Assembly: GCF_030686945.1 (NCBI RefSeq)
Contig: NW_027122708.1
Coordinates: 5,802,248 to 5,866,247, forward strand
DNA from: Centruroides vittatus
Lineage: Eukaryota
Direction of reading: 5' to 3'
Length of the DNA stretch: 64,000 nt
Shown here: one piece after another, positions 8,650-61,100 of the stretch
Layout of the letters: each line of letters starts with the position of its first letter
Numbering within the stretch: the first letter of the stretch is position 1
The notes under the pieces: generated by a model
The model's input: the letters and a program-made list of their open reading frames with translations, nothing else
Told to the model about the DNA's origin: nothing
Database searches by the model: none
Translations under genes and position numbers: made by a program

Positions 8650-9768
8650 GGCGCACAAACCATGTGGAGATCAGTACCTTGGCAACTGTGTCCGCTGTCT
8701 GGTCTGGTAATGGCATTGCCTCCACCCACCTTGAAAATCGGTCAATTGCGGTAAGTAGGTACCTCGATCCTTCCGAGAGTGGTAATGGACAGACTATGTC
8801 GATGTTGATGTGCTCAAGTCGTGAATTTGGGATGAGGAACTTCAACAGAGGTGCATGTGTATGGCGATGGATTTTCAACTTTTGGCAAGCTAAGCATGTT
8901 TGTGACCATGCCTGGCAGTCTTTTTTTTTTTTATATTAGGCCAAATGTATCTCTGAGTGATCAGTTTGGAAGTAGTACGAGCTCCTGGGTGCGAGAAGCT
9001 GTGAATGGCTGAAAACACTTCCTGTCAAAAACGTGGAGGTATGTCCGGTCTACAGTAACCAGTAGAGGCGTCACAGAACAGGGACTTTGTTGAATTTGGA
9101 AGGGGTAAATTTACTATTTTACAATTTGGGTTATTTTGCAATTCTAACAGTTAATCATCCTGTTGTGCATCTGCGATGGCTTCGTAGTTTATGGATGGTG
9201 TGCCGATGGTGTTTATGCGAGACAGTCTGCTACGACGTTGTCCCTGTGGATATATGGTGTAAGTCGGTCGAAAACTGTGACACATAGTCCAATTGTCAGA
9301 GTTGACAAGGTGACGCTTTGGCCAAATCTTGGAGGACAGCAAAGGTGAGGGGTTTATGTAGATAATAAATGGCCTCCCCTCCACCAGGTGTCAAAAATGC
9401 TTGATGGCGGAATAGATGGCTAGGAGCTCCCGGTTGTATGTGCTGTATTTCATTTGAGGCTTGGTGAGAGTTCTGAAGAAAAAACACAGGGTTGTTTAAC
9501 GCCATCGAGTTCTTCATGTAAGACAACTCCCATCGCAACATCTGACACACCCATGGTTAAGGAAAGTTTAGCCTCTGGTGCTGGAGTGGGCGAGCAGAGC
9601 AGCTCTGCTTAAGGCTTCTTTCATGTTGTTGAAGGCTCAGTTTGCTTCTTCAGACCAGACAAGAGGCTTGGTGATGCTTTTGGTATGACTGATTAACATG
9701 GCGTTAAGAGAAACCTGAAATGTAGCACATCCAGGGATGAACCTGTGGTAAAAGTTAATCATTCCAAG
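8650..9768 (-). mobile_element. LTR-retrotransposon pol remnant (Ty3/gypsy- or BEL/Pao-like): RT connection, RNase H and truncated integrase
   Basis: Reading the minus strand gives [17 protein letters not shown]...[19 protein letters not shown] (the FLG.vnYYRrFIp...W.ee...AF..lK motif). RNase H follows as VSDVAMGVVLHEELDGVKQPCVFFFRTLTKPQMKYSTYNRELLAIYSAIKHF. Integrase follows as [87 protein letters not shown]. The region contains stop codons. Confidence 0.7.
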
Positions 9769-10177
9769 GTCAATTAGTAAATTTTGTGCTTTCAAATCAT
9801 GATGAAGAATTCGACGTTGATGGCAATATACTATGGCTTGTAAAATCTGATGCACATCACTCTTGACAAGCATCTTATCCATATACTGCCCAGTAGGAAT
9901 ACTGTCCAAATATTTTTTTAGGTCCATTGATAAATATTGAAAAACCAAATGCAGCTGATTTTCTTGCATAAGTACATGCTGTAAATGAATAATATTGCTA
10001 TGATTCAGTTCTTTCAACAGTGAAATTTCTCTTATGCCTGTAGATGGAACACCGCCACCTTCAATTTTCAATCTTATTTCCTTTAATGCAACTAATTGTC
10101 CAGTTCTGTTTTTTCATTTGTATACCACTCCATATGTTCCTTCTCCAATATTCTCTACTTTTATATAATCATTCATT
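9769..10177 (-). pseudogene. CDK1 (cdc2)-like kinase N-terminal fragment, intronless, in-frame TGA, fused in frame to pol
   Basis: The translation reads [135 protein letters not shown]. It carries the glycine loop, a PSTAIRE-like helix, and the HRDLKPQNLLID motif of CDK1/2. There are no introns across about 136 codons. A TGA sits where Gly21 is expected. The frame then runs directly into the pol remnant ([16 protein letters not shown]). Confidence 0.75.
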
Positions 10178-25408: not shown

Positions 25409-27832
25409 TATAGTGCGCGTGACTGAAGGATACTTGTATGCGAAACCTGGATTATATGCGATTGTTCGGACACCATCTTTGTCGTTGTCGAACTCCAGGA
25501 CATAGCCGAGGAGGCGGCGGTGACCGGTGACCTCACCCCGTTCTACACAAGATCGGAAACAGGCTAAACGTTGTCAGGTAGCGAGAGGAGGAGACTCTGT
25601 CGAAGGTGAGTGCAGGATCTGTTTTCTTGGCCTTTTCAGTAGTTAGAGCATGTTAGAGATAGCGCGAAATAGAAGAAGCGCACTCTATTTATGTAGGAGC
25701 AGCGTCGGAGAAAGCGTTGCCTAATTAGTCTTGTTAATCGGGCTTTTCTTTGGCCTTTGCCGACGAGTATCGTTAGAATAGGGCTTGCTGCCTGTTAAAC
25801 GCGCGACAGGCTTAGCGGAGAGAGCGGAGCGAGTTCCGACGGCACTCCCCGGAAGTGGCACCCTCGTGTTTAGGGGGTTTTTAGGAGTCTCTAGTAAGTT
25901 GTAACAGAAAGCGTTCTAAATGCAATTTTTAGTTGTACTTGTGAAAATTTTCACTTTTAAATTTTACCCCATTTTTGAGGGTCTCGAAAAGTTCACATAT
26001 AGTCATTTTGGGGGACCTGTATCTCGCGAAGGCTCGCTCGTACAGCCATGGGTTCATTAGACTTTTTTATTCCTATCAGTATGATCTACAGCTCTGTTAA
26101 GGTCCCAACCGCGTCATTCGGACCTGTAATTGTGCCGAATAGGTTAAGTTAGTACAAGCATCCCCACTGTTTCAGAGACGAGCTGCCATTTCGCTACCAT
26201 AGATAACATTAACCCTAATTTTCAAGCACATTTATAGGCATTATCATTATCATGGTCCTAACCTAATTTGAAATATTCAATTTCCATTAGCTAATAGAAT
26301 TTATGGGCTGGTACAACCTAACCAAAATTCCATCGGAACTTAATTCTACAAAACTCATTGTTGCAGTATTAGCAAAAAACTAAAAAAAAAGTTAAAATTT
26401 AACAACAAATTTTGATGATATTTAATTCAACTTTTCAAATACTATCGTTTAAGAAATATATATTTACCTATTTAACTTCTTGGAAAAAAATATTGTAAAA
26501 AAAGAAATCAAATGTTCCACTACACATACAACGCAACACCGTCAGTGTAGTCTACCTACATGTTAATTTGCATAATTCCACGATAAACAACCATCTAACG
26601 TCATCTAACTCCATACAACGTCAAATCTAACAAATTTGCATATCCGTTCACGATCACATTTTACGTCACGTTCAACGTATTTTCAAATTTCGTCACACTA
26701 TTAACAGATAGCTCCCTCTATCATCAGTACCTCGCGTGACTCTATTTCGAGATTACCAGAAGCGCCGCCATCTTGGCACCTAAGGTAACATTAACCGAAA
26801 TTTTTAATACTGCTTTTTAATCTTAGAAAAATTTTTTAAAAAAAGATTTTTATAAATATTACATGCCTTAATTGAAAAAATACTTGCTTTGTAATCTTTA
26901 TAAAAATCTTTTTTAAAAAACTTTTCTAAATATTACATACCTTAATTTTTTCAATCTTTCTATTTTTGTTAGTGAGATTCCGAATCCGCTTTTTCTAAAA
27001 ACAGGCTACGCCAACTCGAAATTTCCGTACATCTAGTTTGTAATAAGCAACCAATATATAAATACATAAACAGTATACTAGTATCAAATGGACATTACCT
27101 GATGTAAAAGTTTTTTAACTAAAAATTTTTAAGAATTGTTCATTGGATCCTTTTGTGCTTAGATGTGATATAATTTGTTTTTTAGCATTTACAAATAAAA
27201 TAACAAAGTATACTAGTTTGTGTTTAACAAGTAAGTCTTACTTTACTAATTAGACATCGTTACACGACATTAATAAGACTTGCTTCCGCTTTTCGTGGTA
27301 ATGCGGTCTAATACAAATTTGCATATCTTTATGAAATACAGTAATTTGTTTCACAATTTTCGTTTTCACGATCATATGTTTCGATGTTTCACGAAGCATA
27401 GTTAAACCAGTTTTTATTTTAATATTAAAATGTATTTTACAAGACATTTAACCAGTTTTCGTTTATTTTTATGCTCAAATTTTTATTAATATAATTTTTA
27501 GCTTTAAGATTTCAAAACTTTCTTTAAATTTTTTACTATATATGTTTTTTCTTTATGTAAAATTTCAACATTAGACTTATCGATATTACAGTTATTCGTT
27601 AAACAGTGATCGTGGAAAACGGAATTTAATCTATTGTATTTTAGGCCAGCGATGTGTTCTTTTAATCTTATACTTGATTTTCGTCTTGTTTCTCCTATAT
27701 AAGATTAAAAGAACACATCGCTGGCCTAAAATACAATAGATTAAATTCCGTTTTCCACGATCACTGTTTAACGAATAACTGTAATATCGATAAGTCTAAC
27801 GTTGAAATTTTACATAAAGAAAAAAACATATA

Positions 27833-29029
27833 CAGTAAGGCCCCGCTTAACGCTGTTTCGGTATTACGCGGTAGTATTGGAATTCCCCGAGATCGCACGC
27901 AGTGTTGGGATCAAGGCGTAATATCAAATTTTAAAGCTTATTATCTGCGGCGGACATTCCGACAACTGATTGATAAAATAGATGGAGCAGATAAACAATC
28001 CATTAGAGATTTTTGGAAAAGCTATATCATCATGGATGCTGTAGACAACATCAATCTTTCCTGGAATGAGGTGACCGAGAAATGTTTGAAAGGAGTGTGG
28101 AAGAATGTATAGCCGGAGCTAAGCAAGGATGTTGACACAAGAGAATCTATTGTTGATGTCGATGAAATTGTCAAGCTAGCTAATGAAACAGGGTTGGATA
28201 ATATAAATGCGCAGGATATTGAAGAATTATTGCAAGTTACAACTGGAGAAAGTTTTTCCAACGACGCTCTTAAAGAATTAGAACAACAGGTGCATAAAGA
28301 TGACGAAATTAGTGTTTCTAAAGATGAGGAACAAAAGGTTCATCATCTTTAGATGGCTTTCTACGGCTTTTCTAAAAAAAAGTTTAGCTACTATAACGGA
28401 AATAATGGATCAGTTTATACAAAATGATTTCAATTTTGATAGAAGTTCAAAGGCAAGACGAAGTGTCATAGATGCGATGTCTTGTGATCGACAACCGCTT
28501 GCTGAACGAAACAGGAAAAGGCAAACGACGTTAGCAGTAGCGCAGCGAGGGGTGTATCATCCACCGGGCACCATTCTCAGAGGGGCGCCCAAATCGTCTC
28601 CAAGACAAACTATATGTGTTTCTGGAGGGGGAAGAGGGGCGCCAATAAAGTGTCGGGCGCCAGTTATGTTCGCTACGCCACTGGACGTTAGATGACTTCT
28701 TCACAAAGGAACAAAAGATGTCAAATGAGGAAGAACCTTCCTCATCACAAACATAAAAAAAAAAGTTCGAGTAAAGAAGTTATTTTCATGAATGTTTTTT
28801 GAATAAATTTCGATATTAGCAATAAATAAGTCTATAATTAATGTAATAAAAAAGTATTTAACAATAAATGTTACAAAATAAAACAAAAAAAAACTGATAA
28901 ATTTTCTTATTCTCTGTTCTGTTTCACTATCCCCCTTATTTACATGTTAAGATGACCCAGTTTAACGCTGTTTCGTTTAGCGCTCTGTCATCTAGGAACG
29001 CATCCCTCGCGTTAAGCGGGGTCTTACTG
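27833..29029 (+). mobile_element. Tigger/pogo-like internal-deletion derivative (about 1.2 kb) with 22-bp TIRs and TA TSD, inserted at the centre of the foldback
   Basis: The left end reads TA|CAGTAAGGCCCCGCTTAACGCTGTTTCG and the right end CGTTAAGCGGGGTCTTACTG|TA. The host sequence reconstructs to ACATATA|TAGTAAAA, which matches the opposite arm. Internally it encodes a pogo DDE transposase C-terminal region (..SWNEVTEKCLKGVWKNV.PELSKDVD...VDVDEIVKLANETGLDNINAQDIEELLQVTTGESFSNDALKELEQQ...FLKKSLATITEIMDQFIQND..). Confidence 0.7.
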
Positions 29030-40109: not shown

Positions 40110-40990
40110 GCTTCGCATTCGTTTCTGGTGATGCAGTTCCAAATGTGTCGAATGTACGTCACTAGTTCCGCTTTAAAAGTTGATCACCGTTCATTAAGTC
40201 GTCATTTCGTGACTCCCCACAAAACTTCAATGGATTTAAGTCTGAGGAATTGCTTGGCCAACGCACGATTGCAATCTGTCGTTCTTGTAACCAACGTATC
40301 GTTGACTTCGCTGTATGAGAGGATGCTCCATCTTCTTGAAATAGAAATGTTTTCTCAATTAAATCCTCTGTCGATGGTATCATAAATGTCTCTAAGATGT
40401 CTAGATATGTCTGTGCATTGACACGTTCCCGAAGAATGCACAGTTGTCCTACGCCGTTAGCACTCATGCATCCCCAGATCATGACAGACGATGCAAACTT
40501 CACGGATCTCTTCATACAGTCCTTTTCGAAGGTTTCCAGCCTCTGGTTGTTCTTTTCCAGGTTTCCTTTCCAGCCTCTGGTTGTTCTCCATACACGTGGG
40601 CCTTGGTCACTACAGGAGAGACAAAACAGGGATTCGTGACTGAAAAGAACGTTATTCCAGTCGTCTTGTTCCACATGAGCCTTTCTCTGTACCATCTGAC
40701 ACTCGCTTGTCGTTGCTTTTTCGTTAGAGATGGCTTTGCCTTGGGAACACGGAAGTTGAAGTGCAAGTCGTGCAACCTTTGGCATCTACTAACGTTCACT
40801 CCAGTTGCTCTGCATTGTGCGTGTAAGTGTTTAACGCTCTTAAAGCGGTTTTGCACGACAATCCTCAAGTTTCTCACATCTCTCTCAGTCGTTGATCGTT
40901 TACGTCCACATTTCTGGCGTTTATTAGTTAAAAGTTGAACACTGTTTTGTTTCAGTACTCTAGAGACTGTTGGCTGCAAGCATTTTACAT
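40110..40990 (-). pseudogene. Tc1-family transposase (HTH plus DDE), frameshifted
   Basis: Two overlapping frames read ...RKRSTTERDVRNLRIVVQNRFKSVKHLHAQCRATGVNVSRCQRLHDLHFNFRVPKAKPSLTKKQRQASVRWYRERLMW... and WNNVLFSHESLFCLSCSDQGPRVWR...MIWGCMSANGVGQLCIL...LFQEDGASSHTAKSTIRWLQERQIAIVRWPSNSSDLNPLKF. These carry the Tc1 D,D34E catalytic signature. Confidence 0.7.
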
Positions 40991-50611: not shown

Positions 50612-51960
50612 ACAGCTATTATTATTATGTGTTGGGTTAAGTGAGATATACTTGGTTAACACCGGTGGCTATGTACTATGCCGGACCAAAGTCAAGGCAT
50701 AGTAACCAAAACAGAAATTAAAGAACTGTATCAGTGTGTGTGTCTGTATTCAAGAATTTTCTCACAATATGACATGTATTCAATATAGTGGCCTTCTTTA
50801 GTGTGATGTATGTGTTTCTATTCAATTGTAATGTGCCCAGGCTTTTGTGCAGTGTGTGTGGTATGACACCTGTAGAGGAGAGAACAACAGGTTCAATAAG
50901 CACCCTATCCATCCTCCACAGATGCCTTATTTCCTGGGCAAGTTCTGTGTACTTGCTGACTTTTTCAGTGCATGTGTTTTGTACATTGTGAGTGTTTGAA
51001 TGGATATGTCTATAATGTATGTGATTTTATTGTGTTTGTCAATGAGTGTGATGTCTGGTCTGTCGTGGTGAATTGTTTTATCTGTGATTATGGCTCTGTC
51101 GTAGTACATGTTGTGCGTGTTGTTTTCCAATACTGTCTATGGAATGTATGTGTAGTATGGTTCATGGATGTCTACTAATTTGTTTCTTTGCAAGCTCTGG
51201 TGTATTATATTTGCAACTTGATTATTGTTCTCACCTTTTTCTGCTATTAACTCGTTTAATCGGTTGTTGAAGTGATTATTCATATCACTTAATAATTCCT
51301 CCATGATCGTTACTTTTGTCAAAGAAGAAAGATTAACTACTGGTCACATAAATTTAAAATTCGGTACTAAATGCAATACACAAGCGCAACTAATTGTAAG
51401 ATGTAAGTTCTGATTGGCTAGTGTATGTCGGATGATCACTTCTCAACGTGTTATTATCACTTTGCCCGACTAGGTGGTAGCAGTATTCATAATGACCGGT
51501 CAATTTGATAAATTGTTGAAATTTATTACAATGCCTGATTTTGTTGGTCATTATTCATAATGCCCGTATTAATCACTTTGCCCATAACATCTATATAAAT
51601 AATCTGTCTGTGCCAAGAGCTTGCAACCGGAAGTGATGTGTTGTATAGTTTCTGGCATGATGTGACATTTTCTGCATGTGTCATTTGTGAGTATTGCATC
51701 TTTGAGTATGTTTTCTGTAGTTTTTAGTATTTATGACCTGATCCTGTATGGCAATCATGAATCCTTCCATCTCCCAAAGAGGCAACCTGAGCTAACCAGC
51801 AGTTTGATGCAGTTTTGTCAACAAAATCCTGGGCCTGGTTGTAGGGATGCCTGCCATGAAGTGACTTTTGAACCCACAATTGTGTGGCCGTCGGCCATAT
51901 TGTTGTATATTATTTTTATTAGTTGTTAAGTTAGTTGTAATATTTCCTGATTTTCTTTCG
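50612..51960 (-). mobile_element. R2/R4/HERO-type (restriction-like endonuclease) non-LTR retrotransposon 3' fragment, copy I, degenerate; (ATA)n tail
   Basis: The minus-strand frames read ..NQVANIIHQSLQRNKLVDIHEPYYTYIP.., then ENNTHNMYYDRAIITDKTIHHDRPDITLIDKHNKITYIIDISIQ.., then MDRVLIEPVVLSSTGVIPHTLHKSLGTLQLNRN. The 3' end reads CTTAACCCAACACATAATAATAATA. Confidence 0.6.
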
Positions 51961-53207
51961 TTCTCTGTTCTTTGTTTATCACCTTCCAGGAACTTCTTCA
52001 TTGTGCAGTGGTGATGACCTAGTTACAGGACAATAGAAAGGGGTAGCTGGAGGGCTAAAGGAGAAATATGAACTCATTCTTTGGTTTGAGCGTTGGAGAG
52101 AAAAGATGTGTGAAGAACAAGGGAGACGATAGGCCTAAGTTAGAATCCGAGAGGATCCTGGAATACTTCGATAGGACATTCGGAAAACATATTTTGAGAA
52201 CTTGAAAGAAATCGGCAATCTTCAGTTTATACCATTTGGACAGATAATCAATCAGAAATCACCACGAGGTCGTTGAAGATTTTGGGTACCCATCTCTCTC
52301 TATCACCATACATTCATCTGCTCTACTGTCTATCCTTTCTTCCCCTCCTTTTTTTTCATTTGTAATATAAGTAAGGTCTATGAGGAGAAATGAAGCTAAG
52401 AGTGACCACACCCACATTCTGTGGAGATATTTATCATACAGGATCAGGTCATAAATACTAAAAACTACAGAAAACACATACTCAAAGATGCAACACTCAC
52501 AAATGACACATGCAGAAAATGTCACATCGTGCCAGAAACTATACAACACATCACCTCTGGTTGCAAGCTCTTGGCACAGACAGACTATTTACATAGACAT
52601 AATCAAGTAGCAAATATAATACACCAAGAGCTTGCAAAGAAACACAAATTAGTAGACATCCACGAACCATACTACAAATACATTCCACAGACAGTATTGG
52701 AAAACAACACGCACAAAATGTACTACGACAGAGCCATAATCACAGATAAAACAATTTACCACAACAGACCAGACATCACACTCATTGACAAACACAATAA
52801 AATCACATACATTATAGACATATCCATTCCAAACACTCACAATATACAAAACGCATGCACTGAAAAAATTAGCAAGTACACAGAACTTGCCCAGGAAATA
52901 AGGCATCTGTGGAGGATGGATAGGGTGCTTATTGAACCTGTTGTTCTCTCCTCTACAGGTGTCATACCACACACACTACACAAAAGCCTGGGCACACTAC
53001 AATTGAATAGAAACACACACATCACACTACAGAAGGCCACTATATTGAATACATGTCATATTGTGAGAAAATTCCTGAATACAGACACACACACTGATAC
53101 AGTTCTTTAATTTCTGTTTTGGTTACTATGCCTTGACTTTGGTCCGGCATAGTACACAGCCACCGGTGTTAACCAAGTATATCTCACTTAACCCAATAAT
53201 AATAATA
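51960..53207 (+). mobile_element. Family-X module (51960-52417) joined to a 5'-truncated R2-type LINE 3' fragment, copy II (52418-53207) with an intact 229-aa C-terminal ORF
   Basis: The ORF at 52421-53110 reads CRKCHIVPETIQHITSGCKLLAQTDYLHRHNQVANIIHQEL...HNRPDITLIDKHNKITYIIDISIP...EKISKYTELAQEIRHLWRMDRVLIEPVVLSSTGVIP. This is a CCHC motif followed by the PD..D..K motifs of the R2-clade restriction-like endonuclease. It ends in (AAT)n at 53185-53205. Confidence 0.65.
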
Positions 53208-53658
53208 ATAACTCTCCCGGGGTCACCACCTGGTCGTGGTGGGAGAGCCCAGTAATTTTACTGATCCATAGGGCAATGCAGACTGGAGCACAAGCTCCTG
53301 GTAGAGACACCCATGCCAGTAAGGTCTATGGGGAGAAATGAAGCTAAGAGTGACCATACACCCACATTCTGTGGAGATATGTATCATGGTAGTAACCAGA
53401 TCTAAATGTGATACCGGTTCGGACGTCGCCTGGGTTAACAAGGTCTGCGTTCGTGGGTTAGGCAGAGGCTCACGTTCGAAAAATAGGCCACAGTCTCCCT
53501 TGGTTACCGGTGGCGAAAGCAGCACCAGCCCAAGCATGGCTACTGCAATGCCCTCAACAGATGTGAGGAACCAACCTAGCCTTGGTGTTTCTGTGGCAAT
53601 GCATCCACAGACCACAAAGGCTGGAAAACCACGCCAACGGATGAAATGAACAACGGAA

Positions 53659-54102
53659 ATGAACAAGTTTATCATCTGTACTTATTACACCATCACAAAA
53701 CTCCAAACAAACATGACAGCATACAGACAACAGCTACACCATAAATTCACACAACAATATCCTCACCTCACTGTCACCGAACAAAGGGTTGTTGATCAAA
53801 AAAGAACAATTATACACAACAACCTTATTCCACAAACAACACTTGAACTTATCAAACAACAGGTTGCTGATCAAATACATCAACAGACAGAAACATTTAA
53901 CATTAATGAAGATCATGTAACCTGTCAGGATAATCCAGCAACAAGCACTGATTATAGCACGCACACAACAACTACCACTATTGATACTACAAACACTTCC
54001 TCATTCATCACCGATAACATAGACATAGATTTAGTTAATACGCTCTCACTTATATTTCAGGAAACACTCACTAAATATACAGGCACAGATCCCAAACCTT
54101 AA
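53659..54102 (+). CDS. 147-aa ORF of unknown identity downstream of a family-X module fragment; possibly a retroelement ORF1 piece
   Basis: The ORF reads MNKFIICTYYTITKLQTNMTAYRQQLHHKFTQQYPHLTVTEQRVVDQKRTIIHNNLIPQTTLELIKQQVADQIHQQTETFNINEDHVTCQDNPATSTDYSTHTTTTTIDTTNTSSFITDNIDIDLVNTLSLIFQETLTKYTGTDPKP. I see no motif I can name, and it has a Thr-rich low-complexity stretch. Confidence 0.2.
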   Translation: MNKFIICTYYTITKLQTNMTAYRQQLHHKFTQQYPHLTVTEQRVVDQKRTIIHNNLIPQTTLELIKQQVADQIHQQTETFNINEDHVTCQDNPATSTDYSTHTTTTTIDTTNTSSFITDNIDIDLVNTLSLIFQETLTKYTGTDPKP

Positions 54103-56756
54103 GAATTTTAAAACATTGACAAGAAATTCATTATTCAGACTATTCTAAGCATAAGAAAAGTAGGGAAATGTTAGACCAACATTTTATCATGCTAGAAATA
54201 ATTTTTTCTCTAATTAAACAAACACCATAAATATTTTCTGTTTTCTACATCACTATTTTTTTCTGTAAGTATATTTACATGCTGTAATAAAATCATTTTC
54301 CATTTAATTAACTGTCACAATTCTAAAGAAGATTCATTTTGGTGACCAACTTTTGAAATTGATAAGTGAAGATTGAAACAGCAAACATTTCATACAGCAG
54401 AACCCAGAGACTACAAAAAATGGGGGACACAAGCTATGAAAAAAAGGGCATCATGCATTAAGGAAGAAGCTTCAAACTATGATTCAACGTCGGATTAGCA
54501 CTTCCGCAATGTAACCGGTTTTCAAGGCTAACTTGGCCTTGAAAACAAGGAATGTAGTTTTGGTCGACATAGAACAAAGTTACATGGGACAATGGACGAA
54601 TATAGTTCAGTAGTTCCTTTTATATTTGCATAATAGTCTAGAAGTCATGCATTTTCTGTTGTTTGTTGATATTGGGATTAGGGTCCCCTTGGGGATTAGG
54701 AAAAGAGCAACTCTGACAGAAAAGGCAGGACATGTCCTCCAAGTGCCCCAATGTATGCGCATCCCTGATTTTATGTTTGCCGTTTTATTATTTTATGTTA
54801 TTTCTTGTTTTTATTGTATGAGTGGATGTTTCACAAATTGTCAGAAAATAAAAAATGTGGTCATCAGAATTGGTAAATTTCATGGAAGACATTGTTTATT
54901 TAACTCCAACTGAAAAATGTAGACCTAGAAATTACCACTATCATCCGTCCGTCTGATGTCTGTCTGTCTTTCCTTAATCTCGAGAATGGAGCTAAATTGA
55001 TGAAAGACGAGACCATATGTGGAAACCTTAGGGGCAGGAAGCCCTCAATTAACTTATATATGAACTTCCGATGCAAACTGGAAGTCGTGTTATTTCAATT
55101 CAAAAATTTTCCCCTGAAACATGTTAGATGACTGGCACGACTATTGTTAAAGGAAAAGTATGATGTACAAGGGAAGCCATTACTAATTCAAGGTGGAGAG
55201 CATATATTAATATTTTAAATTAAAAATCAAAAAATATGATTAAAACTTGCAGCCCGGCATGTGACGATACAAAACAATAACAAGCAATTATTTATCGTGA
55301 CATCATTATATTAAAGCCAAACGATTGCCATATTATATCGGGCTATATTAATGCAACCATTAATAATTAAATGTTAAGCAATTTGGCTTAGAGACAGGCA
55401 TTAGGTGCCATCTCTTGATAAATTTAATAATTATAATTAATATTTTAATAATTAATTTAGGAGGTTCTGAAAAAAGAATCTGCTCAAAGTTGGATACAAA
55501 CCCACAACTCCCACATACAGTGTGGTTGCATAGCCAGTTATGCTACCCTGACTTCTGTCCGATCTTTCCTTCCAGAACTATTAATTTAGATGTAACCCAT
55601 ATTGATTATTCAACACATATTCAAGAAAGTAAAAGTTATTAATGTAATGACTAATTTTCAAGTTTAAGAGATCAAAATGCAGTTGTTTTGCTTTTTCACA
55701 AATGATGACCTTAGAAACACTATCACTAGCTAATTGTTTTTCATCCAAACAATAACAATTTCTCAACCTCTCAATTGTGATCTTTGTTTTGTAACCATTT
55801 TCACCTCTTAGCAACATCAGCTTTTTTTGGACTATTTTTTTAGTATTATAGAGATTGTAGATTTTGCTGTAAGAAAGTCAGTAGCAAGATCAGACATGGG
55901 AGCACCACTTTCATATTTTGCTGAGTTTTTTCATCTCTATTGGCTGTTATAACCAATTTTCTTTTCAGTTGGCTGTTATCTTAGGCTCTACAATAATTTA
56001 TTTGTATGAGGAATATAAAAGAAAGCCAAAAAACGCAAAAGAAATGAGAAACTTTACAGTGAAGTTTGGCAGAGTTGTGCATTGAGTGACAACTGTGAGA
56101 AGACTGACATATTTCCTTTGTTTCAGCCAAGAATATCCATACACAACACAGAGTGACAAAATACATCTATTAATTTTAGCAATAACTTTATCTGATGAAG
56201 ATAGAAAACTCTAGGGTTTCATTTTATTCTTAAATTAGTAATTCATTTTTAAAAATTGCAAACCACACATTTTCATTCTATTTATGATTCTTCCCTTTTC
56301 ACTTCAATTTATTTTTAGTTATATCTGTTTTCTTTATTCACTATATTAAATTCAAAAATGAAATCAAATTGTAGTTGATGATAAATTTATTTAAAATAAG
56401 TAATGGAGTTTTGGAATTATGAATATATGGTAAATTACTGTAATAAATAGTGTATCTTCTGTCTTAGTGATTTATAAAATAAAAAGAAATGCAATTCTTT
56501 TCTTATTTTTAATTTTTTAATACTCTGTGCACTTTGTCAATACAATCACCATGATGCTACTGGTATATAATTAAAAATAAGCAATTACCATTAAACCAAC
56601 AATTAATTGTCGTCCAAACAAATGTTTTCTTCTGTTTTAAATGGTCATTGTCAGTTTCAATGTAAATGGAATGTTTGTAAAAGGACGTAAATTCAAAAAT
56701 TTAAAAAGTCGCATGTCATAAAGATATGTGCGTGCTCGTGACGCATTTAAAAAATT

Positions 56757-57270
56757 AATCTTCCAGCTGGATTTCAGTTTAAAATATTAAGTTTTAAAAC
56801 AAACTTGACAAGAATCTATCATAAGTCAAAGGACGCCGTCTACACAGCTGCTAATGTGTCCATGTCTTTAAAATTAATGGCTGTTTCCCTCTTAGATGCT
56901 TTAAATATCTCCAGTTGTTCGAGATATTTAATGTTGGCCAAGTCCTCACACCGTTGGAGTAATTGGGCATTGTCAAAGTCAGTCGGGACATCATTATCAA
57001 CAGCAAAAGAAGCCAATGCAGTAGTTGTAAGATCTCTCTGAATGGCGTATTTATGCTCCTTGATCCACATGTTTAGATTACGTGCAGTAGCACCAATATA
57101 TTCACGAGGTCGGTTCAAACCTATGATTGTAAATAGGGATAGTATAGATCCCTGGGGTACATGGATACATTAGCAGCTGCGTGGAGGGTTTCCTTTGACC
57201 TATGATAGACTCGTCAAGTTTGTTTTAAAACTTAATATTTTAAACTGAAATCCAGCTGGAAGATTAATTA
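56757..57270. repeat. Cassette bounded by perfect 56-bp inverted repeats enclosing a Penelope-like GIY-YIG endonuclease fragment
   Basis: TAATCTTCCAGCTGGATTTCAGTTTAAAATATTAAGTTTTAAAACAAACTTGACAAG at 56757-56812 is the reverse complement of 57212-57270. Confidence 0.7.
56840..57118 (-). pseudogene. Penelope-like element GIY-YIG endonuclease domain fragment
   Basis: The translation reads MNRPREYIGATARNLNMWIKEHKYAIQRDLTTTALASFAVDNDVPTDFDNAQLLQRCEDLANIKYLEQLEIFKASKRETAINFKDM, which matches vYIGeT.R.l..Ri.EH...........A.H........f...il. No RT is found upstream. Confidence 0.55.
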
Positions 57271-57271
57271 A

Positions 57272-58170
57272 TTTACAACCAGGCCCAAGATTTTGTTGAC
57301 AAAACTACATCAAACTGCTGGTTAGCTCAGGTTGCCTCTTTGAGAGATGGAAGGATTCATGATTGCCATACAGGATCAGGTCATAAATACTAAAAACTAC
57401 AGAAAACATACTCAAAGATGCAATACTCACAAATGACACATGCAGAAAATGTCACATCATGCCAGAAACTATACAACACATCACTTCCGGTTGCAAGCTC
57501 TTGGCACAGACAGATTATTTATATAGACATAATCAAGTAGCAAATATAATACACCAGAGCTTGCAAAGAAACAAATTAATAGACATCTATGAACCATACT
57601 ACAAATACATTCCATAGACAGTATTGGAAAACAACACGCACAAAATGTACTACGACAGAGCCATAATCACAGATAAAACAATTTACCACAACACACCAGA
57701 CATCACACTCATTGACAAACACAATAAAATCACATACATTATAGACATATCCATTCAAACACTCACAATATACAAAACACATGCACTGAAAAAGTCAGCA
57801 AGACCACTGAACTTGCCCAGGAAATAAGGCAACTGTGGAAGATGGATAGGGTGCTTATTGTACAGTACCTGTCACTCTCTCCTCTACAGGAGTCATACCA
57901 CACACACTACACAAAAGCCTGGGCACATTACAATTGAATAGAAAAACATCACACTACAGAAGGCCACTGCTTTCTGTAGTGTGATGTATGTGTTTCTATT
58001 GAATATATTGAATACATGTCATATTGTGAGGAAATTCCTGAATACAGACACACACATTGACATGCTTATTTAATTTTTTGTCTTGTTTTGATTGTTATGC
58101 TTTGACTCTGGTCTGGCACAGTACACAGATACAGTAACTGATGTCAACCAAGTATAACCCTGTAAGGAAC
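57272..58170 (+). mobile_element. R2-type LINE 3' fragment, copy III (degenerate), immediately abutting the GIY-YIG cassette
   Basis: The region is homologous to copies I and II (..ENNTHKMYYDRAIITDKTIYHNTPDITLIDKHNKITYIIDISIQ..). The 5' junction at 57272 lies next to the right inverted repeat. There is no (ATA)n tail. Confidence 0.55.
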
Positions 58171-61100
58171 TGAGTCCGAACGTTATTTTTATTTTATTAT
58201 TATTTCTGTTTTATTATCTTTTGTTTGGGGTTTATGTTTATTTAGGACAAAGGTTCCCCACCACTCTCTTGTTAGTAATGAAAAATGAAGATAAAACAAC
58301 TCACGGAGAAATAAGCGCCATAGACAACATCTTGCGCGCTTGCGCTGCCCGGCGGAAGTAACAGTCCGCAGAGAAAAAAAAATGGAGGGGGAGTCCCCAC
58401 AATCACTAGTAGAGAAATACTTGATAAACCGTCTTAAACATCCCAGAAAATTATGATAAATATTTTGTAAACGGTTTATAAGCTTTGTCGGAAACTTAAA
58501 GCTGCCAGAAAAGAAAGTTAATGTTAGCAACTAAGTATGTAAATAAGGGGAGTAACCCAGCTCAAGTGTGACGTCACCTCACAGTATAAAACCTTAACCT
58601 AACACAGTATAAACCCTTTCGGTGCATGCTTAAAAGCCCAGGCCTGGCAAACTAATCTCAAATCCGCATAAAGTACCAGTTAGGTTAACGGAAGTTTTAC
58701 CGACCGTAATTATAGTCGGTTTCCTAAGCTACTAAAAAAATAGTACTTTACAACCCACTACACTCAACATAATGATGATAATAAAGAAACAAACTATCGT
58801 TTTCTCCCTCTAATTAAACTTTAGCTAGAGAGAAATAAGAGCTGAAATAGGTTTCTCTTAAAAAAAGTAGATGAAAAATAGTTAAACAGCAATAAGCAGA
58901 TATATTGACTTTACATTTAAGTAACAGTAAGTTAAATATCTGTTACTCAATATAAATTCATCATGCCTTATTTATTTTAAAATTTTTCATAAAATAATTT
59001 TAAAGAATAACAATATAATTCTCACCTTAATAATTGATCACTGAAACCATGCAGAAATACATCATTTGGATGCTGAGACTGTTTCTTTTCATCAAAACTA
59101 TAAATAAAATTGTTGCAGATTAATTTAATTTACAAAAATAAACAAAATAATCAATAACATATTTGGCAACATTCGACCCAAAGAGCAGGCAGGTTTAGAA
59201 GCAATTTTAGTAATTTTCTAGACCACATTCACAGATTAAAATAACTGATAGAAAAACCAAATAAAATGTAATAAACCTCTCTTCTTGGCTTTTATCATTT
59301 ATGAGAAAGCTTTTTGACCCCATTAAGAAATTTGCTATATTAAAAATATTATAAAATTAGGGTATCCATAAGACCTACATATACATACTCAAATTTATAC
59401 ACACCTATGCAACTTCATGGCAATAGTAATTGTGGCAAATATATATTTTTCAGATATTTGCATTTTATACATCATTTTTATCACTATTTGATGAAATCAT
59501 TATTATTATTTCATATCAATCAAAAATAAATTAGAAAAAGTTATTTCAAGCTATATTTTTACATATAAATATGTAATCATTGGATTATTATTTTTTTATT
59601 CTGATGGCAGCTTTATTTTTCCATTGAAGAATAATTAAATGTAGCTATAATAACCAACACTAAATTTTTAAGCTTATTACTTGATTTAATTATATGATTT
59701 ACTATATAAAAATTATATTTTAATATTTTTATATATAATTTAATATTTAAAAAATTAATCAAATTGTAATCTTTATTAACATGATAACCAACCCTGTTAT
59801 GCAATTATAAATAATTTATTTAATACAAATATATTTTTTCTTCTTTACTTTTCAAATAGTTCTGCTTCCTATTAAAATTTTTCACAAAATGATACGTCCT
59901 ATCCATAGGTTCTTCACATTCACATACTGTATGCTTTTAATGAGTAATTTTCTCAATAAAAATGACCAAACTCCTTTTAATTTAAAATAGCTATTACTGA
60001 TCTGAAAATGCAGATACTCAAAAATATTGAGTCTCACCTATACCATTCTTCTTTTCTAATAAAAAAAATAGTTGTTTTATACAAATAATTATTGGTAGTT
60101 CTTGTGAAAAAAACAAAATATTTAGACTTGTATATGAAATTTTAAACTTTTGCAAAATTTTCCATTAACAGTTTTTCTCTTATATAATTCTGATTCTCCA
60201 CACAATAGTACTGGTAACAGTTTAAACTTGTTTGATATTATTTCTATCTTATAATATAATTCATTCAATTATGTATCTTTACATTTTCATTATAACAACT
60301 TACCAAATATCCAAATAATTCTTTCATCAATATATTTACACTTTTAGCTACATAATATAAAAATTGAATAATTCAATCATTATATTACATTAATTATCTA
60401 ATCTGTTAATTTTATGACAAGATACATATCCCTGTATATGGCATTTCAAATAAAACAATATGCTCACAGACATTATCTAAACTGTTTCTAATTTATCTAT
60501 CTAATCTCTTACTATAATCAGAGCTACATACAAAACAGATCCCAATATTACTGTATGAAACAGTTAAACATTAATTATTTTATTAGTACTAACTAATACT
60601 CAAAAGTGTATTAAGACAAATATTTTTGAATTATATGGAATTCAACTTCTGATAATTAATGTTTCATTCAGAGTTAAACAGTTTATTTTCATATGATGAC
60701 ACAATAAACAATTTACATATTTTAAATGTATTTATTTTTCAGCATGTTTTATTATTATTTTTTAAATGTGCATTTGTGCAAATCTAAGATTTTTAGAATT
60801 TATTTTTTTCTACAAAGTAGTGTTCTGAAGCTGAATTCTTTACAGTGAAAAACATCTTAAAATTCTTAATAAATTCTTTTAGATTTGAAAAAAGCCTGTG
60901 ATTATTTCACTTGTTGAAGCAGATGGCAATATATTTTTTTAAATTTTTACACAAATTTCATTACAGAAATATATTTTAAAAAAAAAACCTCAATTTTTCA
61001 TAAGAATTTGTTTTGACTTTTATTATGATTATATAAATAATAATATTTTTAAATATTAACTTATTAACTTTGACTATTTTATACTCATCATTTCATTATA

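Follow-up and report, generated by a model that had tools for sequence, protein, structure and literature searches.

Insertions of Penelope-like elements (PLEs) leave a recognised signature, in which 5′-truncated copies are accompanied by inverted partial copies (PMC8557442, PMC3846280). In Adineta vaga, 5′-truncated copies are flanked by inverted pLTRs, most commonly in a head-to-head arrangement, and self-priming has been proposed (PMC3846280). Purified PLE protein cuts and extends both target strands from the same reverse transcription start sites; it favours ATT sites and begins reverse transcription internally on the RNA (PMC11167929). The endonucleases of canonical PLEs (Penelope/Poseidon, Neptune, Nematis and Naiad; cd10442) possess a CCHH zinc finger, with two Cys residues between GIY and YIG (PMC8557442). 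Hydra is the only described clade with a C-terminal endonuclease (EN+) that lacks CCHH, and is characterised by a CxCX5C linker, the motifs DKT and RWK, (TA)n targets and aquatic hosts (PMC8557442).

Here we examine a locus within a 64-kb stretch of DNA from the scorpion Centruroides vittatus (64,000 nucleotides, hereafter the window), where the original prediction placed a Penelope-like GIY-YIG remnant between perfect inverted repeats of 56 bp. The locus is almost certainly a decayed PLE 3′ fragment that carries an inverted partial copy of itself. The remnant is ~700 bp in size, the whole unit spanning 56573–57269 (697 bp), and along the plus strand its pieces occur in the order antisense UTR, antisense arm, antisense endonuclease and sense arm (Table 1).

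Table 1. Positions of the PLE remnant, its inverted repeat, its coding lesions and its immediate flanks within the window.
Feature	Position	Strand	Basis and detail
Candidate left target-site duplication copy, AATT	56569–56572	unstranded	Read from sequence; ≤3 nt from the outgroup-predicted 3′ end
3′UTR of PLE remnant	56573–56818	minus	Centruroides UTR alignment; ~246 nt, predicted 3′ end ~56570–56575
Left arm of inverted repeat	56753–56865	minus	Repeat search, self-BLAST and gapped alignment; 113 nt
Double stop of the original ORF	56816–56821	minus	TGA at 56819–56821
Pseudogenised GIY-YIG endonuclease domain	56819–57158	minus	phmmer, tblastn and alignments
Premature TAG in place of Trp (TGG)	56840–56842	minus	Homologues and right arm keep Trp; right arm GCG TGG
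Arg to Trp (TGG) in R..EH motif	57065–57067	minus	Column R31 ≥90% invariant in 24-sequence alignment
YIG motif	57092–57100	minus	Frame 1
Frameshift, 1-nt insertion between GIY and YIG	57117–57119	minus	DNA alignment; window CATAGGTTTGAAC versus Centruroides CATAGG-GTGAAT
GIY motif	57144–57152	minus	Frame 0, PGIYTIPIYNHR
Right arm of inverted repeat	57159–57269	plus	Repeat search, self-BLAST and gapped alignment; 111 nt
Candidate right target-site duplication copy, AATT	57270–57273	unstranded	Read from sequence; between right arm and LINE III
R2-type LINE copy III, 5′-truncated, outside the PLE	57274–58156	plus	Self-BLAST to copies I and II, three-way alignment and tblastn

Identity and decay of the endonuclease remnant

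The minus-strand peptide running from 57169 to 56843 reads ..NRPREYIGATARNLNMWIKEHKYAIQ...INFKDMDTLAAV and then a stop, and the window copy also contains the EH, E (LEIFK) and N (INF) of GIY-YIG nucleases. A Pfam scan of this peptide alone gave no match, PF01541 included; a word-indexed homologue search gave none either, and public assemblies searched for an exact match to the 92-aa ORF had none on record, as was also the case for the homologue P0003. The identity of the domain was established by an exhaustive phmmer search of 1.84 billion representative proteins (cut-off E≤1e-3), which returned 51 matches, the best being to the C-terminus of protein P0001 (E 5e-28, 63% identity). The matched proteins P0003, P0014 and P0053 are long and comprise Pfam RVT_1 followed by a C-terminal GIY-YIG domain, and it is the extreme C-terminus of such homologues that the window copy matches, through the stop codon. 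Specifically, tblastn aligns residues 239–337 of P0001 with 57118–56822, and residues 571–584 of P0003 with 57158–57117. With full-length homologues as queries, tblastn detected no PLE reverse transcriptase across the 64-kb window, and only the endonuclease part is represented.

At the level of the clade, Pfam GIY-YIG is matched by 17 of the 24 endonuclease domains (best E 1.1e-5), and P0029, a canonical-type phmmer match, scores above the threshold for this family (26.7 bits). A profile of the clade searched against the PDB yielded only two matches, both of them to GIY-YIG nucleases (T4 endonuclease II and I-TevI; E about 0.15). The GIY-YIG α/β fold was checked on an AlphaFold model of P0001 (mean pLDDT 83), a homologue 60% identical to the window domain, rather than on the decayed window copy. 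The top three Foldseek matches of this model in the PDB are all to the I-TevI catalytic domain (including 1ln0 and 1mk0), with probability 0.99–1.00, TMt 0.65–0.68 and rmsd 3.6–3.9 Å. The similarity to RT-containing proteins and the I-TevI-like model of P0001 uphold the assignment of the remnant to Penelope-like elements, and the sequence between the arms is a genuine, and dead, PLE GIY-YIG endonuclease domain. The ORF of the window copy has been inactivated by a frameshift, a premature stop and the loss of a near-invariant Arg, and the 697-bp unit is very probably without function today.

Structure of the inverted repeat

The inverted repeat is real and not a product of chance; a 55-nt probe from the outer arm has exactly two exact matches, one per strand, where shuffled sequences lead to an expectation of 0.00. 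The perfect repeat of some 56 bp noted originally was recovered by gapped alignment as an outer run of 57 nt (56753–56809 and 57213–57269), and the whole repeat proved to be twice as long. Self-BLAST joins the arms into one repeat with 91% identity over 113/111 nt, and the repeat search reports two adjoining arm pairs, 56753–56812 with 57210–57269 (60 nt, 98%) and 56812–56865 with 57159–57212 (54 nt, 85%). In the gapped alignment, the inner ~55 nt of the arms contain 8 substitutions and a 2-nt indel. The spacer between the arms is 293 nt in length. The probe and self-BLAST revealed no further copy of the inverted repeat within the 64-kb window, and an exact search with a 32-nt piece in bacterial, archaeal and metagenome collections gave 0 matches, which is uninformative for an arachnid genome.

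Folded as single-stranded DNA, the region forms a 111-bp stem (–130.7 kcal/mol, z = –17), and the differences between the arms are clustered non-randomly. Both properties would fit a repeat kept for a function, either as an invertible segment or as a source of hairpin RNA or small RNA, with selection or ongoing gene conversion holding the outer 57 bp. However, a long DNA stem is a trivial result of the duplication itself, the enclosed ORF is dead through its frameshift, stop and Arg to Trp change, and no Rfam family matches 56757–57270; all nine sub-threshold Rfam matches in 55500–58500 lie outside that interval, and none is a hammerhead. We consider a retained function very improbable. Inversion of the segment by recombination, as envisaged in the original prediction, is possible in principle.

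Extent of the element and composition of the arms

Protein and DNA homology to Centruroides PLE copies starts exactly at 57158, the right-arm junction, by both tblastn and alignment. Since the window also contains no PLE reverse transcriptase, the remnant is 5′-truncated at the GIY motif. To place the 3′ end, we used the closest Centruroides copies, L001 and L002, which have in common a 3′UTR of about 232 nt beyond the stop. The whole window was searched on both strands with the UTRs of L001 and L002; the best matches, at 56661–56583 (E 5.7e-5) and 56658–56575 (E 2.3e-7), are on the minus strand. Both lie downstream of the ORF in collinear order, and as far from the stop as expected. The Smith-Waterman score of 26 compares with 11.5±1.4 for shuffled sequences (maximum 18). 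A three-way MAFFT alignment is likewise collinear over the interval bounded by the stop codon and the TTGGTAATT block, and passes the outer end of the left arm without a break. The 3′UTR extends about 180 nt beyond the left arm, to about 56573, where the 3′ end and the family consensus are those inferred from an outgroup that is only 67–71% identical.

Because UTR homology continues past it, the left arm is internal to the remnant, and the alignment assigns to it the final 14 codons of the ORF, the stop and 66 nt from the start of the 3′UTR. The right arm, read in frame, gives MDTLAAAWRVSFDL followed by two stops, which is the C-terminus of the same endonuclease ORF. The right arm is therefore an inverted, plus-sense copy of the internal piece that forms the left arm, joined to the 5′-truncation point. 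The repeats that were thought to enclose the remnant do enclose the nuclease ORF, but they do not delimit the element. We had also considered a pair of 5′-truncated copies whose 3′ termini would be 56753 and 57269, respectively; this reading was dropped because the Centruroides 3′UTR aligns past the left arm.

The composition of the arms likewise bears on whether they are terminal inverted repeats of a MITE or other DNA transposon with a captured GIY-YIG fragment of unrelated origin, the scenario by which the original prediction could have failed. The perfect 57-nt termini do adjoin the A/T-only sequences ATTAAT and AATT, which could pass for a palindromic target-site duplication. Against this, the left arm has its collinear place with the endonuclease domain on one side and the distal PLE UTR on the other, the C-terminus of the same ORF can be read in frame from the right arm down to the same double stop, and no other copy of the repeat occurs in the window. 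As both arms consist of the end of the PLE ORF and its UTR, this scenario is effectively refuted. In annotation, 56573–57269 is to be masked as a PLE fragment, and not as a MITE or an invertible element.

Flanking sequences

The 697-bp unit may be flanked by a target-site duplication of AATT; the duplicated sequence is 4 bp long in an AT-rich context, with a chance expectation of about 0.08. On the right, the LINE copy III starts 4 nt past the right arm, so that the repeat does adjoin a LINE 5′-truncation point as described originally. The coding homology of LINE copy I extends at least 36–60 nt further in the 5′ direction than that of copy III, which is therefore truly 5′-truncated. An ORF of this LINE family (52421–53110) encodes CRKCx8Hx5C and then RPDI...IIDIS...EKISKY, corresponding to a CCHC knuckle and a PD-(D/E)xK endonuclease, and the C-terminal ORF matches the R2 protein structures 9nl3, 9dou and 9nl2 (E 5e-4 to 2.5e-3). 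On these sequence matches, the label 'R2-type' is fair at the superfamily level. On the left, the nearest LINE fragment is copy II, which ends at about 53213, and the intervening ~3.3 kb is LINE-free; blastx of 53200–56760 against a protein set that included LINE C-terminal homologues gave no match. The remnant thus has a LINE neighbour on its right side, and is not sandwiched between LINE fragments as had been proposed.

LINE III contains a local inverted duplication of its own (36 nt, 57933–58004), which is missing from copies I and II. A sharp break in BLAST identity between LINE III and copy I (98.8%, then 84%) was found by three-way alignment to be mostly an indel artefact, and was for this reason not used as evidence for local gene conversion.

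Origin of the inverted copy

The suggestion that the locus preserves a partial inverted PLE arrangement fits well with a right arm made of the ORF's own C-terminus, and has precedent in described insertions (PMC8557442, PMC3846280). On balance, we favour an origin in a single PLE insertion event next to a pre-existing LINE. In this model, a PLE of an arachnid lineage would have inserted by target-primed reverse transcription at an AT-only AATT site, just upstream of the 5′-truncated R2-type LINE that was already present. Copying would have taken in the ~246-nt 3′UTR and the GIY-YIG domain and stopped at the GIY motif (57158), whereupon 111 nt of element sequence, made up of 14 codons, the stop and 66 nt of UTR, would have been added in reverse at the broken end. 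This addition could have occurred by either of two routes: (i) the end of the nascent cDNA snaps back and self-primes 293 nt upstream, or (ii) the second target strand, once nicked, serves as a primer at an internal A/U-rich site of the element RNA, and synthesis then switches onto the first cDNA. Decay of the 697-bp unit followed, with a single frameshift and a premature stop, loss of the Arg and ~9% divergence between the arms. No clear microhomology is seen at the inner junction; at best it amounts to TGT, as inferred from the outgroup. In this account, what the pieces are, how they are ordered and oriented, the internal left arm and the decay are read from the sequence; the single event, the switch of template, the insertion after the LINE and the target-site duplication belong to the model.

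The inverted copy might instead have formed at the DNA level after insertion, with no involvement of the PLE machinery, through fold-back at the 5′ end of the remnant, where a fork had stalled or a double-strand break had been resected. Priming would have taken place 293 nt away, with 111 nt copied before the strand was joined to the other end, and the break could have been that of the 5′ junction of LINE III. An antisense arm, a loop and a sense arm on a single strand are the exact geometry of a fold-back, the PLE 3′ terminus is absent from the inverted piece, and the right arm directly adjoins the LINE III 5′ junction. Moreover, the 36-nt inverted duplication that sets LINE III apart from copies I and II indicates that small fold-backs happen at this locus without PLE involvement. 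However, inverted partial copies at 5′-truncated ends are a specific and repeatedly documented feature of PLEs, both PLE remnants in the window carry one, and the candidate AATT around the whole unit favours a single insertion. A DNA-level origin is accordingly a credible but unlikely alternative. A template switch during reverse transcription and a later fold-back of DNA are indistinguishable from the sequence alone.

The second PLE endonuclease remnant of the window, at 27533–27838, is of an unrelated CCHH type and forms a 99% hairpin with its centre in the YIG motif. Among related Centruroides copies, L003 contains a perfect head-to-head palindrome of 2116 nt with the 3′ ends facing outward, and L002 also contains a large, 100% identical palindrome. 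Palindromes of such identity could be assembly artefacts, and provide only weak parallels. Neither L001 nor L002 has a comparable inverted repeat around the endonuclease domain.

A further possibility is dual target-primed reverse transcription, in which each of the two nicked target strands gave rise to its own 5′-truncated cDNA with a 3′ end, the two were joined head to head, and the short copy later lost the distal 180 nt of its UTR, either by deletion or through the insertion of LINE III. Purified PLE protein does extend both strands from the same reverse transcription start sites (PMC11167929), head-to-head is the commonest inverted arrangement of PLEs (PMC3846280), and outward-facing 3′ ends are seen in the L003 palindrome. 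On the other hand, a search within several kb, covering the sequence after the right arm and both sides of LINE III, found no copy of the distal UTR, with Smith-Waterman scores at the level of shuffled sequences. The model also needs a precise loss that ends exactly at the LINE junction, and the candidate AATT would be a coincidence. We regard it as improbable, and rank the single-event insertion first, followed by DNA-level fold-back and then by dual priming with loss of UTR.

Age of the duplication and possible gene conversion

Comparison with the Centruroides outgroup identifies derived changes in both arms, namely GCG to GTG and TGG to TAG in the left arm and GAC to GAT in the right arm. 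The duplication is therefore old, and both of its copies have decayed. The perfect outer run had originally been taken to imply very recent formation or gene conversion; with arms only 91% identical overall and derived substitutions in each, very recent formation does not hold. All 8 substitutions between the arms fall in the inner half, which has p 0.003 under uniform mutation and p 0.008–0.03 with a heavier weighting of G/C or CpG sites; the outer half has 25% GC and no CpG. That the outer half underwent partial gene conversion is plausible but unproven. The single-event model without gene conversion leaves the contrast between the perfect outer 57 nt and the diverged inner 55 nt unexplained (p 0.003–0.03).

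A zinc-finger-less endonuclease lineage

All named phmmer matches that were examined come from two scorpions, Centruroides sculpturatus and C. vittatus, and further members of the lineage are SRA contigs. The CCHH zinc finger is missing from the window copy, where the relevant positions have neither Cys nor His (GIYTIPIYNHR.NRPREYIG and ALASFAVDNDV), and across the alignment of the clade, whereas the canonical matches P0029 and P0042 from the same search possess C..C and H...H. Upstream of the GIY motif, there is no Cys linker in ~60 aa of P0053, and P0013 has one Cys.

The lineage resembles Hydra in the absence of CCHH, in the presence of RWK in the full-length P0053 (FRWK) and in an altered DKG motif. 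It differs from Hydra in that the homologues lack the CxCX5C linker and the CxxC/CxH motifs, and carry DKN or DKS in place of DKT; the named hosts are terrestrial scorpions, not aquatic invertebrates, and the candidate AATT target of this locus is not (TA)n. Overall, compared by described motifs, hosts and targets, the lineage does not fall within Hydra as that clade is defined. A phmmer search with full-length P0053 against PDB sequences gave no matches, and our literature search found no paper on scorpion PLEs.

Judged by described features, the combination seen here matches no clade catalogued in 2021. The remnant may derive from a PLE lineage expanded in arachnids that has neither CCHH nor a Cys linker, and we suggest only tentatively, from sequence motifs, that this lineage could be an undescribed clade; alternatively, it may be a variant of a known clade that has lost its zinc finger. 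Were it an undescribed clade, target recognition must work without either zinc finger. A zinc-finger-less endonuclease lineage in scorpions may interest transposon taxonomists, and is the only mildly notable point of the locus.

Comparison with known insertion systems

Inversions at the 5′ end of L1 reportedly arise by twin priming, as proposed by Ostertag and Kazazian in 2001. The locus resembles such insertions in being a 5′-truncated copy with an inverted 5′ segment, and in the explanation offered, by which the second nicked strand primes internally on the RNA. In L1, however, the inverted segment derives from RNA upstream of the direct segment, whereas here it duplicates part of the direct segment. 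Such a duplication calls for a second template or a snap-back.

Snap-back inverted duplications at the ends of double-strand breaks have an antisense segment, a loop and a sense segment on one strand. The same order is found here, with the copy beginning at the broken end; nothing at this locus points to a chromosomal break, as opposed to an intermediate of retrotransposition, as the source of that end.

With respect to PLEs, no direct pLTR, tandem copy, hammerhead or 'tail' is recognisable in the short window remnant, in contrast to known insertions. No hammerhead ribozyme was detected in 55500–58500 (Rfam, E≤10), and the remnant is without the pLTR/ORF-start region in which the ribozyme lies. 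Nor was a hammerhead detected in the Centruroides copies L001–L003 (E≤0.1), all of which are 5′-truncated and lack the ribozyme region; their only Rfam matches are hairpin-driven miRNA false positives on the palindromes. In its overall plan, the locus corresponds to the complex insertions described for PLEs, the GIY motif being the point at which it is truncated and to which a 111-nt inverted partial copy is joined. Like insertions of Penelope in D. virilis, of Pen2, Pen5 and Pen6 in Adineta vaga and of Naiad, it is 5′-truncated and retains the C-terminal GIY-YIG domain and the 3′ region (PMC8557442, PMC3846280). It also shares with known PLE insertions an inverted piece of the same element placed head to head at the truncated 5′ end, and an AT-rich target with a short or ambiguous target-site duplication. 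The locus is thus a PLE fragment of an ordinary kind, decayed and bearing a fold-back copy of part of itself, and neither a switch nor a new kind of element. Its value is that of a small, clean case of an inverted partial copy at a 5′-truncated PLE insertion, and junction positions across many genome-wide copies could help to separate self-priming from internal priming by the second strand. What distinguishes it from described inverted pLTRs, which normally include the terminus, is that the inverted piece is internal, comprising 111 nt and omitting the distal ~180 nt of the element.

Hairpins and palindromes at GIY-YIG remnants

A second GIY-YIG remnant, unrelated to the decayed Penelope-like element (PLE) 3′ fragment at 56573-57269, has as its top tblastn matches P0029 and P0042, which are PLE endonucleases of the type carrying the CCHH zinc-finger motif. 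In this remnant, two 128-nt arms (99% identity, reaching ~140 nt) flank a 25-nt spacer to give a near-perfect hairpin, and the palindrome centre lies within the YIG..R motif. In contrast to the PLE remnant at 56573-57269, the arms are symmetric and adjacent, such that the hairpin looks like a snap-back product.

Perfect palindromes, with 100% identity, were also observed at two loci of Centruroides sculpturatus (GCA_000671375.2) with related PLE copies (L002 and L003). Such palindromes could have arisen very recently in association with PLEs, or they could be artefacts of the assembly.

Coordinates of features within the window and of the C. sculpturatus palindromes
Feature	Position	Strand	Description
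ORF with CDK-like kinase fragment	9637-10071		Kinase fragment fused with a retroelement-like stretch
Second GIY-YIG remnant	27533-27838	minus	Peptide SYIGETRRKSSIRLKEHIAGLKYNRLNSVFHDHC...
Apparent Tc1/mariner transposase remnants	40162-40979		Overlapping ORFs
R2-type LINE copies I and II	50647-53213		Head-to-head, ~520 bp between
LINE copy I, 5′ end	~51906	minus	
Insertion in LINE copy I	51226-51589		365 bp
LINE copy II, 5′ end	~52424	plus	
147-aa ORF	53659-54102	plus	MNKFIICTYYTITKLQTNMTAYRQQLHHKFTQQYPHLTVTEQRVVDQKRT..., Thr-rich tail
Inverted duplication in LINE copy III	57933-58004		36 nt; ..CACACTACAGAAGGCCAC TGCTTTCTGTAGTGTG..
Palindrome, L003	3882-8134		2116 nt, 21-nt spacer; two PLE copies, head-to-head
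Palindrome, L002	7013-9727		1167 nt, 45-nt spacer; PLE 3′ terminal 247 nt present twice

LINE copies and other reading frames

The R2-type LINE copy adjoining the PLE remnant (copy III) contains a local inverted duplication that is missing in copies I and II, indicating that small fold-back duplications occur at this locus independently of PLEs. Copies I and II themselves form a pair, with copy I split by an insertion containing short internal repeats (tcataatgacc / atcactttgccc). Between copy II and the PLE remnant lies the 147-aa ORF, which might represent the 5′ part of a retroelement; it had no matches among the proteins retrieved in the analysis. The assignments of the Tc1/mariner remnants and of the kinase fragment were made solely from the ORF list.

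A scorpion clade of PLE endonucleases

Proteins P0001-P0063 and P0184-P0205 make up the scorpion PLE clade, in which every named member comes from Centruroides. For a second subgroup (P0008, P0009, P0017, P0019, P0040, P0041, P0043 and P0045), the only sources are SRA (Logan) contigs. The C-terminal GIY-YIG endonucleases of this clade possess neither the CCHH motif nor a cysteine linker, and their GIY and YIG motifs lie 4 aa further apart than those of canonical PLEs.
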